From a virus, in IMG/VR virus record IMGVR_UViG_3300026484_000402, positions 1 through 64,000 of that record: a stretch of 64,000 nt of DNA, one strand, 5' to 3'. The position numbers and the translations under genes are program-made. The notes under the pieces were generated by a model. It was not told where the DNA came from and made no database searches. It saw only the letters and a program-made list of their open reading frames with translations. Shown piece after piece: positions 13,860 to 17,058 of the stretch; position 1 is the first letter of the stretch, and every line of letters begins with the position of its first letter.

Positions 13860-14594
13860 GTGATTAACATAGTAGTTTCCAGTAACCTTAAAACAAGTTT
13901 AGATTATTTATTATTAAAATATACTATTCGAAGTATAGAAAAAAACTTTAGAGAACCAGATTATATAATTCATGTTTTTTCCAATTTTAATCCAACTTTC
14001 CTAAAAAATATAATTTATCATAAGGTTCATTTTGAAAAATCACACGATGAGCTTTTTTCAATTCATAATTCTTCAATTGTAAATGCAGCATCAAAATTTA
14101 AAGATTTTATATTTATTCAAAGTGGAAACATAATAAATGACAAAATAACTTCGATGTATACTAAAAATGCAAAAGGATTTAAAAAAGAAAGGAACCTTAT
14201 AGATGAAATAAGTGATGTTTATTCAAAATACGCATACATGACGTATATTGAGATGTCTACAAATTTTGGTCACAATAAAACTATTATCACAGATTTGTTT
14301 TCTCCGCAATTTATAAAATCAAAAGATTTTAACAAGATGATGAACGACTTTAGAACTATACAAACAAACAACTATAACGCTTTAATGCTTTATAGAAATT
14401 ATTTTAATACAATAAAAATTACAAAAATAAACAGAATGAATAGTTTTATAATAGATGAAGAGACATATTATTGTTTTATGAAAAGGTTTAAGAAAGATAA
14501 AGTTTTTTTTATAGAAAAATATGGGCTTAAAAACCCAATTGTAAAAACTTATATAGAAAAGAAATTTGGAAACAAATGTTCTTTTGAATGCTAA
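13860..14594 (+). CDS. Divergent Stealth CR2-like (sugar-phosphotransferase-related) protein
   Basis: LKYTIRSIEKNF...IHVFSNFNPTFL resembles ELRYSLRSIEK; the NDD motif is replaced by QSG. Confidence 0.4.
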   Translation: MINIVVSSNLKTSLDYLLLKYTIRSIEKNFREPDYIIHVFSNFNPTFLKNIIYHKVHFEKSHDELFSIHNSSIVNAASKFKDFIFIQSGNIINDKITSMYTKNAKGFKKERNLIDEISDVYSKYAYMTYIEMSTNFGHNKTIITDLFSPQFIKSKDFNKMMNDFRTIQTNNYNALMLYRNYFNTIKITKINRMNSFIIDEETYYCFMKRFKKDKVFFIEKYGLKNPIVKTYIEKKFGNKCSFEC

Positions 14595-14848
14595 TGTTTA
14601 TTTGTTACGCCTAGATATTTTTCTGCGGTTCTAAGTCCGGCAAGCACTCCTCCAGTGATAAGAATATCATTTAATCTAGATATTACTTCAGACGGTAATT
14701 CTATATGTATTCCAAATCCAGACAATATAGCATACGCAGTGGGATATACAATATAAATTAACACTACTGACATAACTATTGCAGCGGCTAAAACCGGTCT
14801 CCATGCTGGATTTATAAAATCTATTATTTTTTTTACCGTAGGATTCAT
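14591..14848 (-). CDS. Holin (GTA_holin_3TM-like)
   Basis: 85 aa; WRP...hydrophobic helices...LAGLRTAEK signature. Confidence 0.75.
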   Translation of the reverse strand: MNPTVKKIIDFINPAWRPVLAAAIVMSVVLIYIVYPTAYAILSGFGIHIELPSEVISRLNDILITGGVLAGLRTAEKYLGVTNKH

Positions 14849-15891
14849 TTTGTCTCCCTTCTTGCTGGAACTGTTATTTTAATTATTGTTCCGTTCTCAT
14901 CTGAATTAACCACTTCTTCATTACCATTTGCCGAATTTATTATTTCTTTACATAGATACATTCCAAATCCTCTTCCATTGCCTTTTGTGCTTTTTCCTAA
15001 ATCCCATATATTTGCAACCATATCCGGTGGTATTCCTTCTCCATTATCTATTATATAGAATGTGAGAATTTTATTTTCACAATCATATGATATATATTTA
15101 ATTTTTACTATCGAAGCATTTGCGTCTAAGCTGTTTTGTATATGATTATTTAAAACATTTAGCATTTCAACGGGTTTCATTGTTGTTAAATAAAAACATT
15201 TAAGTTCTTCCGAAACATAATAATCAAAATTATATTTATTAAACATACTAAACATTGAAAAAACATTATTTGCTATATTGTATAACGAGTCCTGATTTTT
15301 TAGTTTGTTATCTTTTATGCTTTTTATCATACCTAACGTTTCAAACATGCTATTTATTGAATTTTCTATTAAAGAACTATTTATTTGTATATCTTTTATA
15401 AGTTTAATATTTCCGTCACAATATCCTGTTAAAGAACAATTTTTACAATCTCTCGTTTTTTCATTACAACCATATACTATTCTATCTATGTTTCTTTTTC
15501 CATCTCTCTTTGCAGATGATACGAGTGTTTTTATTATCCTGTTGTTTTCCTCAAAAGCATTTCTTATAGCAATTAAAGGACTCATTAGTTGATGGTCTAT
15601 ATTTTGCATTAACGAATATGTTATTTTGTATGACAGAATATTTTTTTCTTTATTCAAGTATGTTTCAAATGTAATCTTAAAAAGGTTTGATATTTTATAT
15701 AAAAAAACAAAAAAACTTAAAACAATGAATAATGATTTTATTATCCACATCATATGCCCATTATCACAACAAGGGCATTTATTTAAATATTCAAATAAAA
15801 GCTCTATTAAGAATATTGATATTATAAAAATTAGTGTTATTTTTATAGCTTCGTGTATATGTTTTTTTGATTTATTATAATTCTTAAACAT
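14845..15891 (-). CDS. Membrane-bound sensor histidine kinase with Cys-rich insertion
   Basis: Two TMs; H-box NIDHQLMSPL; N-box NNHIQNSLDA; G1 DNGEGI; G2 GRGFGMYL; C-x6-C-x2-C-x5-C insertion. Confidence 0.9.
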   Translation of the reverse strand: MFKNYNKSKKHIHEAIKITLIFIISIFLIELLFEYLNKCPCCDNGHMMWIIKSLFIVLSFFVFLYKISNLFKITFETYLNKEKNILSYKITYSLMQNIDHQLMSPLIAIRNAFEENNRIIKTLVSSAKRDGKRNIDRIVYGCNEKTRDCKNCSLTGYCDGNIKLIKDIQINSSLIENSINSMFETLGMIKSIKDNKLKNQDSLYNIANNVFSMFSMFNKYNFDYYVSEELKCFYLTTMKPVEMLNVLNNHIQNSLDANASIVKIKYISYDCENKILTFYIIDNGEGIPPDMVANIWDLGKSTKGNGRGFGMYLCKEIINSANGNEEVVNSDENGTIIKITVPARRETK

Positions 15892-15892
15892 A

Positions 15893-16594
15893 TTAATCCT
15901 TAAACAAGCATTCTATAAAAAATTTTGCCCTATCATCAAAATAAGGTGTTTTTGTTAACACATTGTTTTTTAAATAATTTTCGCCTAATAATTTTATTAT
16001 TTTTTCTTTTTCTTTTGAGAAATGGTTATCAAGATAACAGCCAGTAAAAATACAAGTTTTTATATTAGGGTTAATTTTATGCAAATAGTACACAAGGTCT
16101 ATTCCGTCCATAGTATATTTTTTGCCATTTTTTATAATCGATTCTCCAAAAACAATATCTACTATTGCATAATCAAGAGAGCACAATGTTTTGTCGTAAC
16201 TATCACAAGTTTTTTGTATTCTGTAAGGTGCATAACTATCTACTATAGGTCTTATTTCAACATCTTCATAATTAAGTTTTACCGAGTCTATAAGTTTAAG
16301 GGTTTCAATGTCAGTGTAAATATCGACGTTTTTAGTAAGTATTCTTTTTAAATCTTTTAAAACAAGCTCAGTAACCCCTTTATTGTCATCAGTTACTAAT
16401 AGATGTTTTTTATTATCGTCTTTAAAACCGCAAAAATAATTTAAATCTTCCCATTTTTTTAATTTTTCAAACGTCTCTTTTTGTAATTCTTCTTTAATTT
16501 TTGATACCTCAAATATATCTTCTTCAGAGATTTTAAATTTTTGTCTATTTTGAAGAAAATTAAATAATTTATTTTTTATATTGATAAGACTCAT
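15893..16594 (-). CDS. Receiver-only response regulator with internal insertion
   Basis: LLVTDD acidic pocket, YAIVDI phospho-Asp, MDGIDL, IFTG, LTKTP; no DNA-binding output domain. Confidence 0.75.
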   Translation of the reverse strand: MSLINIKNKLFNFLQNRQKFKISEEDIFEVSKIKEELQKETFEKLKKWEDLNYFCGFKDDNKKHLLVTDDNKGVTELVLKDLKRILTKNVDIYTDIETLKLIDSVKLNYEDVEIRPIVDSYAPYRIQKTCDSYDKTLCSLDYAIVDIVFGESIIKNGKKYTMDGIDLVYYLHKINPNIKTCIFTGCYLDNHFSKEKEKIIKLLGENYLKNNVLTKTPYFDDRAKFFIECLFKD

Positions 16595-17058
16595 TTTATT
16601 CCTTTCACACTTGAAGTAATATCTTTTACTACTTCTGTTGATTTAACCATTGCTTTTTCGTCTAAATGATAAAAAACCATTAAACCGCCTATAAAAAGCA
16701 AGATTCCTAACACTATTGAAAAAATTATTTTAAATGGAGATTCAATAAAGAAACGATACCACTTCTTTTTAGTGCTAGGTTTAGTTTTGTCATACAATAT
16801 ATAAATATACTCTTGTTGTATATCTATAATACACCATGTCATTTCAGAAATTGTCAGTTTTAATTTTTTCTGCTCAGTTTCTATTTTAGAAGCCAATGTA
16901 ATGATAAAATCGCTTATTTCTTCTACGTTTTGAGCTTTAGTTAAATTGTAATAAATTTGTAAGTCGTTATTAGATAATGTGTCGTTATGCAATTCTTTTA
17001 GAACGTTTTTCAATTTTTCAATATATTCTTTTAGTTTTTCATCTTTTACTGAAGACAT
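16591..17058 (-). CDS. Helical protein with C-terminal TM anchor; first gene of the kinase/holin operon
   Basis: IIFSIVLGILLFIGGLMVFY TM; ATGA overlap with the regulator gene. Confidence 0.7.
   Translation of the reverse strand: MSSVKDEKLKEYIEKLKNVLKELHNDTLSNNDLQIYYNLTKAQNVEEISDFIITLASKIETEQKKLKLTISEMTWCIIDIQQEYIYILYDKTKPSTKKKWYRFFIESPFKIIFSIVLGILLFIGGLMVFYHLDEKAMVKSTEVVKDITSSVKGIK

Follow-up and report, generated by a model that had tools for sequence, protein, structure and literature searches.

We analyzed a 64,000-nt stretch of viral DNA (the window), which comprises positions 1 to 64,000 of the IMG/VR virus record IMGVR_UViG_3300026484_000402, an 80,340-bp viral contig. On the minus strand of the window, a gene for a membrane-bound histidine kinase (P0001) lies next to a gene for a divergent response regulator (the receiver). 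The kinase carries four cysteines in an insert within the hairpin of its dimerization and histidine phosphotransfer (DHp) domain, where a cofactor would be unusual. These cysteines are conserved among close homologues and, as judged from sequence, most likely form one tetra-coordinate metal site near the surface on which the receiver docks. The kinase and the receiver have the following features (window positions):

14845..15891, minus strand: gene for histidine kinase P0001, 348 aa, with two transmembrane (TM) helices (open reading frame; HATPase_c match; AlphaFold2/Foldseek)
15748..15780, minus strand: loop KCPCCDNGHMM between TM1 and TM2, residues 38-48 (sequence; AlphaFold2)
15592..15594, minus strand: codon of H100, the predicted phospho-accepting histidine in the H-box QNIDHQLMSPL (invariant in 60 family members)
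15403..15513, minus strand: insert at the tip of the DHp hairpin, 37 residues (127-163), with an AK..GKRNIDRIVYG segment followed by a Cys knuckle (AlphaFold2, predicted local distance difference test score (pLDDT) 70-90)
15418..15468, minus strand: four-Cys motif CNEKTRDCKNCSLTGYC, residues 142-158, C142-x6-C149-x2-C152-x5-C158 (sequence)
14860..15168, minus strand: catalytic and ATP-binding (CA, HATPase_c) domain, residues 242-344 (Pfam; PDB profile search; Foldseek)
15893..16594, minus strand: divergent single-domain response regulator, 233 aa, with a helical extension (residues 1-62) and a REC core (63-231) (alignment A3; AlphaFold2; Foldseek)

The initial annotation of this DNA had described the open reading frame as a histidine kinase, and our analysis confirmed this. 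The Pfam model HATPase_c (PF02518) matched residues 242-344 with an E-value of 3.4e-14 and a score of 53.7 bits (cut-off 26.4). The H-box QNIDHQLxSPL, including H100, showed no variation across 60 sequences, and the residues of the N box (N249, N253), the G1 box (D282, G284, G286), and the G2 box (G308, G310) were conserved in the kinase alignments. A profile of the close family matched ThkA, HK853, WalK, SrrB, and ZraS when it was compared to the PDB. The AlphaFold2 model of the kinase, which was built from an input alignment of 60 sequences and reached a pLDDT of 85.9, consisted of TM1 (residues 9-37), a loop of seven residues (38-44), and a continuous helix (45-126) that includes TM2 and DHp helix alpha1 with H100. 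This helix was followed by the insert (127-163) with a short helix of its own, DHp helix alpha2 (164-197), and then the CA domain. Foldseek searches with this model retrieved kinases with a DHp-CA fold, including HK853, CpxA, and WalK. Pfam did not detect HisKA, PAS, GAF, or HAMP domains in the kinase, and no PAS or GAF domain was present in the AlphaFold2 model either. Despite the mismatch to the Pfam HisKA model, the H-box, the predicted fold and the CA motifs identify the protein as a kinase of the HisKA type, for which autophosphorylation and transfer of the phosphoryl group are predicted. All eight closest homologues have retained a further cysteine, C314, in the G2-box region (GFGMYLCK; window 14950-14952, minus strand), whereas this residue is not invariant across the wider family.

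The hairpin seen in the AlphaFold2 model and the Foldseek matches to DHp-CA kinases placed the Cys motif inside the DHp hairpin, between the two DHp helices. The motif had originally been described as an insertion in the DHp region, and this description proved correct. Across all six frames of the window, a single occurrence of the exact pattern C-x6-C-x2-C-x5-C was found, while 0.02 were expected from first-order Markov simulations. Word-indexed searches and exhaustive HMMER searches yielded a close subfamily of 14 distinct homologues with 28-42% identity to the kinase, and all 14 have retained the four cysteines of the insert. The C149-x2-C152 pair was kept in all 22 kinases of a wider alignment (A4). 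Conservation of the cysteines in homologues, which had been proposed as a check of the initial annotation, was confirmed. In alignment A1, residues A127, G131, R133, D136, G141, and C142 were invariant, and an invariant glycine precedes the first cysteine (YGC) throughout the close subfamily. The N-terminal part of the insert, residues 127-141 (A..GKR-x-I-D-R/K-I-x-Y-G), is highly conserved. A motif resembling R-x-I-D-R/K was found in 28 of 116 family kinases, some of them free of cysteines.

A sister clade within A4 (P0012, P0014, P0016, P0019, P0024, P0029) lacks C142. All six members of this clade have a cysteine immediately behind the final CA-domain strand (P-V/I-K-Y/E-C), and this cysteine was found in none of the 16 four-Cys kinases. 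The loss of C142 together with the replacement cysteine behind the CA domain fits selection for four ligands. The replacement cysteine may provide the fourth ligand from the C-terminus of the CA domain, which could then reach the tip of the hairpin.

The receiver gene is located directly upstream of the kinase gene, 1 nt from the kinase start. The Pfam model Response_reg (PF00072) did not match the receiver protein or any other part of the 80-kb record. The AlphaFold2 model of the receiver (pLDDT 91.1) showed a (beta-alpha)5 fold and a helical N-terminal extension of 60 residues. The Foldseek matches listed for this model were all receiver domains, with E-values down to 5e-6 and TM-scores of 0.6-0.72, and a profile of the receiver reached CheY in the PDB at 1e-3. 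The catalytic quintet consists of the acidic pair D69/D70, the putative phospho-acceptor D146, T184, and K215. Among 29 receiver homologues (alignment A3), D69, D70, D146, and G164 were invariant, and T184, G185, and K215 were present in at least 90%. By its predicted fold and its catalytic residues, the partner of the kinase is a very divergent receiver. A complete sister genome (see below) encodes exactly one protein with HATPase_c and no canonical Pfam receiver. We concluded that the phage has one kinase and one single-domain receiver without DNA-binding output. The receiver probably acts by protein-protein control.

The initial annotation had also drawn attention to a CPCC-HMM loop outside the cytoplasm. 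This loop is present and short, it is located between the two TM helices, and its predicted placement outside the cytoplasm follows the positive-inside topology, but it is not conserved. The CPCC...HMM loop was kept in P0003. The kinase P0004, which is 89% identical to P0001, has YSYFVAGNMV instead and differs at 9 of the 11 loop positions, with the changes concentrated on Cys, His, and Met. The loop motif was absent in every more distant homologue. The loop looks hypervariable rather than conserved, and we rejected it as a conserved sensor because it is missing in P0004 and in the distant homologues.

We also compared the distribution of cysteines on the kinases and on their receivers in the wider family. 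The DHp loop of 116 family kinases contained 0, 1, 2, 3, or at least 4 cysteines in 42, 18, 19, 20, and 17 cases, respectively. Cysteine made up 2.2% of the DHp loop region and 0.84% of the other regions of these kinases, which corresponds to an enrichment by a factor of 2.6. The C-x2-C-x5-C core was present in nine of the 116 kinases and in several partner receivers. In eight loci, the N-terminal extension of the receiver carries a four-Cys motif, typically C-x2-C-x5-C-x5-9-C (L021 2632-3309, L026 2877-3575, L027 3024-3734, and L037 2424-3233; also L015, L017, L029, and L031). The kinase loop had 0-1 Cys in seven of these eight loci, and the eighth (L031) was unscored. In the twelve loci with at least 3 Cys in the kinase loop, the receiver extension had 0-2 Cys. 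Clusters on both kinase and receiver were found in none of 29 loci. On a tree of the receiver cores, the two Cys-cluster traits changed at least six and at least four times.

The gene context of the family was derived from 29 loci that were found by pattern scans, and the homologues in the library number about 150. In all 29 viral or metagenomic loci with enough flanking sequence (iterative search), a receiver homologue was located immediately upstream of the kinase on the same strand. An exhaustive search identified more than 100 kinases that have the H-box ENIHHELNTPLE and an RYSNGNK motif in common. Ten sampled clusters of the family came from metagenome sources only. A scan of IMG/VR yielded 27 loci, including genomes of 126-273 kb that are 97-100% complete according to CheckV, two of them with terminal repeats. 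A scan of 185,579 species genomes with a single peptide pattern resulted in one match only, on a 1.4-kb contig of an archaeal metagenome-assembled genome. The pattern scan and the ten sampled clusters are suggestive of an absence of the family from cells. When P0001 was compared by tblastn to 50,697 phage records, only weak matches to the CA domain were obtained, and P0099 gave no match. In PHROGs, the kinases matched only generic families of the CA domain (phrog_857, phrog_10912), and the receiver matched nothing. In these sequence searches, we encountered the two-component family on large contigs of uncultured viruses or metagenomes only, and it is lacking in PHROGs and in the records of isolated phages.

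The 80,340-bp contig has a CheckV completeness of 43%, and the GC content in the window is 26-31%. PHROG searches showed that the kinase locus is surrounded by genes for a GroEL-like chaperonin, a DnaG-type primase, a DnaB helicase, and a beta-type subunit of RNA polymerase, and a Rep-type initiator is likewise encoded. In the kinase region, the neighbouring genes encode small membrane proteins of the phage as well as SSB, GroEL, and primase. CheckV rated a sister contig of 176,653 bp as 100% complete; it encodes a kinase with 89% identity and is colinear in this region. The 80-kb contig is a fragment of a phage genome of roughly 180 kb. The nearby phage replication genes, the complete colinear sister contig, and the viral nature of the contig itself indicate that the kinase gene belongs to a large phage and not to a cell. 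We rejected its interpretation as a host gene, since it sits amid phage replication genes on a viral contig. The initial annotation had missed this phage origin as well as the divergent receiver and the repeated occurrence of the two genes as a phage module. The RNA polymerase or GroEL of the window is common to only some carriers of the kinase-receiver pair. Both are present in the phage G003 (the record of locus L025), which is complete with 187,664 bp and terminal repeats and also has the pair: the RNA polymerase subunit (53% identity) is encoded at 163422-165158 and GroEL (29%) at 136781-138166, and other carriers share neither. A search for tRNA genes in the window was negative. A promoter scan was uninformative, with 25 sites compared to 24.2 expected in such AT-rich DNA. 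The sequencing runs that contain this stretch are labelled as hydrothermal vent metagenome, an origin that fits a low-oxygen host without being a proof of one.

The kinase and receiver genes are the inner members of a row of four coupled genes, for which the following further features were found:

16591..17058, minus strand: gene for a 155-aa protein with a coiled coil and a C-terminal TM helix, first gene of the row (open reading frame; 4-nt overlap with the receiver start)
14591..14848, minus strand: gene for an 85-aa holin-like small membrane protein, whose start overlaps the kinase stop (ATGA) (phrog_3427 holin, 6.8e-5)
14522..14537, minus strand: terminator-like hairpin with a T-run, about 55 nt past the last gene of the row (consensus match only; 0.6 sites expected by chance)

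Pfam and PHROG matches of the 155-aa protein were weak and not informative. Homologues of its gene were located directly upstream of the receiver gene in L002, L006, and L008, and the 85-aa holin-like gene is conserved in L002 and L005. A 136-aa homologue of the holin-like protein (L023 2085-2495) adjoins the kinase-receiver pair of a distant phage. In L004 and L006, which are relatives with 35-40% identity, a different gene pair follows the kinase. In this pair (L006 6894-7250/7222-7524, L004 1571-2026/1995-2297), the first gene encodes a protein that combines an N-terminal TM helix with a coiled coil, and it overlaps a gene for a small lipoprotein whose lipobox reads LITGC or FIGC. From its sequence features the pair looks like i-spanin and o-spanin; it had no match in PHROGs. 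A 244-aa open reading frame (13860-14594, plus strand) converges on the row and shares 4 nt with the last gene of the row. This open reading frame is kept in the sister phage and had no match in Pfam or PHROG.

Histidine kinases are thought to receive their input via N-terminal sensor domains, and the loop of the DHp hairpin is regarded as a short passive connector. The kinase studied here has no input domain besides its membrane anchor, so that an input or control function would most plausibly reside in the Cys insert. In our working model, the row of four coupled genes, encoding a membrane coiled-coil protein, the receiver, the kinase, and the holin-like protein, would contain a self-contained two-component pair. 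The four cysteines of the insert would jointly coordinate a single metal centre where the DHp four-helix bundle is farthest from the membrane. The tip of the hairpin would lie close to the docking surface of the receiver, a position that is established from the HK853-RR468 structures. Because of this proximity, the state of the cluster would adjust how strongly the kinase autophosphorylates, transfers the phosphoryl group to D146, or removes it from there. The phage would read the redox or iron state of its host, with the timing of lysis as a likely output. Lysis timing is our leading guess for the output because holin-like or spanin-like genes were repeatedly found adjacent to the pair. Our analysis shows the identities of the two proteins, the placement of the insert, the conservation of its cysteines, the viral origin, and the recurrent gene pairing; that a metal is bound, which metal this is, and the roles in sensing and lysis are inferred. 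We tentatively favour a redox- or oxygen-labile Fe-S cluster with a sensing role at the DHp tip, to which we assign a probability of about 0.4. The complete proposal, in which an Fe-S cluster on the DHp tip of the kinase or on the receiver extension gates phosphotransfer and the phage times lysis by the redox, oxygen, or iron state of the host, we consider unlikely to hold in all its parts.

Sequence does not decide between Fe-S and Zn as the occupant of the site; Fe-S is slightly favoured, with a nearly equal chance for structural Zn. The C-x2-C-x5-C arrangement is the core of [4Fe-4S] ligand sets in FNR, WhiB-like proteins, EndoIII/MutY, and AddB/Cas4, and Cys4 zinc ribbons usually have two CxxC knuckles. 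In the 22 kinases of A4, a single CxxC is accompanied by lone flanking cysteines and the second knuckle of a Cys4 zinc ribbon is missing, a pattern that still allows Zn. The single CxxC, the C-x2-C-x5-C core, and the vent habitat were counted in favour of Fe-S. Several observations weigh against this assignment. A compact Cys4 knuckle of 12-20 residues could equally bind Zn, like knuckles of the retroviral type. The initial annotation had stressed that the spacing of the cysteines is that of EndoIII/MutY. This is exactly true for P0001, P0003, and P0004, which are at least 89% identical, but the spacers vary in all other homologues (C-x3-7-C-x2-3-C-x4-8-C, with x3 inside the central pair only once), so that conservation does not extend to the EndoIII spacing. 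Since related kinases have 0, 2, or 3 cysteines in the loop, the family as a whole can do without the cluster. The mutual exclusion of Cys clusters on kinase and receiver was not significant once relatedness was allowed for (independent contrasts, too few pairs). A Pfam search with the 41-residue insert alone returned no family at E-values up to 10, and residues 122-166 gave no usable match in the ESM Atlas. The main competitor, which we regard as a realistic possibility, is a structural Zn(II) ion without a role in sensing. In this case, the knuckle at the DHp tip would be rigid and would either give the hairpin its form, which fixes the handedness or stability of the bundle, or offer the receiver extension a surface for docking. 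The compact motif with its variable spacers would suit such a site, AlphaFold2 orders the insert without a cofactor (pLDDT 70-86), and the receiver-borne C-x2-C-x5-C-x5-9-C motifs resemble zinc knuckles. The three-Cys clade with its C-terminal replacement cysteine would suit any tetrahedral site. On the other hand, only one CxxC is present instead of the two of typical Cys4 ribbons and treble clefs, C-x2-C-x5-C is better known from [4Fe-4S] proteins, and the kinase has no other obvious sensor domain.

The conserved cysteines might also act without a metal. Oxidants, polysulfide, or electrophiles of a sulfur-rich host would then convert thiols at the DHp tip to disulfides or persulfides and so alter the output of the kinase. 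Thiol-switch kinases exist, for example RegB (C265) and SrrB, and the conserved cytoplasmic cysteines at a mechanically sensitive place as well as the vent habitat would be in line with such a switch. The known examples employ one or two cysteines, however, whereas the kinases studied here retain four, and where one was lost, a cysteine in another part of the protein takes its place. This points to a four-ligand centre and not to a thiol switch, which we consider improbable. We give similarly little weight to an input from the membrane side, in which the CPCC...H-M-M loop would bind a thiophilic metal such as Cu(I) or Ag(I) on the outer side of the membrane, or the TM helices or co-transcribed membrane proteins would sense as in intramembrane-sensing kinases, and the DHp cysteines would be incidental. 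The kinase does have two TM helices joined by a loop of about 10 residues with many Cys, His, and Met, and genes for small membrane proteins are translationally coupled on either side of the pair. Since the loop motif is missing in P0004 and in all distant homologues, however, the loop is not a conserved input, whereas the DHp cysteines are conserved.

The kinase shares the DHp hairpin, the H-box histidine, the N, G1, and G2 boxes of the GHKL type, and a CheY-like partner with HisKA kinases such as HK853 (with RR468), ThkA, WalK/YycG, CpxA, and ZraS. It differs from them by a hairpin loop of 37 residues with four conserved cysteines, where theirs has a few residues, by the lack of HAMP and PAS domains, and by its viral origin. 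With EndoIII/MutY, the window protein has the C-x6-C-x2-C-x5-C spacing in common, of which the outer spacers vary among its homologues. It does not belong to the EndoIII/MutY family, since its fold is different and the spacing is all they share; no HhH-GPD, FNR, or Wbl fold was present, and the similarity to EndoIII/MutY, FNR, and Wbl proteins is limited to cysteines. Two TM helices, a very short outside loop (less than about 25 residues), and the lack of a periplasmic sensor domain are reminiscent of intramembrane-sensing kinases of the LiaS or BceS type. Unlike those, the kinase has no BceAB-type ABC transporter gene or LiaF-like gene among its neighbours, but replication and lysis-type genes. 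The proposed signal-dependent timing of lysis, with a kinase gene coupled to a holin-like gene, resembles lysis inhibition in phage T4 (holin T, antiholins RI/RIII). T4 uses direct protein binding to the holin without phosphotransfer. For the pair described here, a link to lysis is a proposal based on gene adjacency. A possible Cys-ligated redox or O2 input in the cytoplasm, which is putative for our kinase, would be shared with NreB ([4Fe-4S] in PAS), AirS/YhcS, and CSK/Hik2. The clusters of these kinases are located in PAS or GAF sensor domains N-terminal to DHp, whereas the cysteines described here are inside the DHp hairpin. The initial annotation had set the kinase apart from such proteins, and this distinction held, as the kinase contains no PAS, GAF, or HAMP domain. 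For the chloroplast sensor kinase CSK/Hik2, an Fe-S cluster was reported in the sensor region (PMC6949291). Our literature search revealed nothing specific on Cys, Fe-S, or metal sites within the DHp hairpin, nor on the family of phage kinases and receivers described here. A survey of jumbo phages mentions only a divergent receiver, which was never linked to kinases (PMC7824862).

Kinase and receiver are small and easily expressed, so that the choice between Fe-S and Zn as well as phosphotransfer can be tested directly. A conserved metal site in the DHp loop beside the docking surface of the receiver would, if true, represent a different route by which a signal or a cofactor requirement enters phosphotransfer. 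If the pair times lysis according to host physiology, it would constitute a phage sensory circuit. If the complete proposal held, histidine kinases would have a cofactor at a new position, and phages a decision circuit of a new type.

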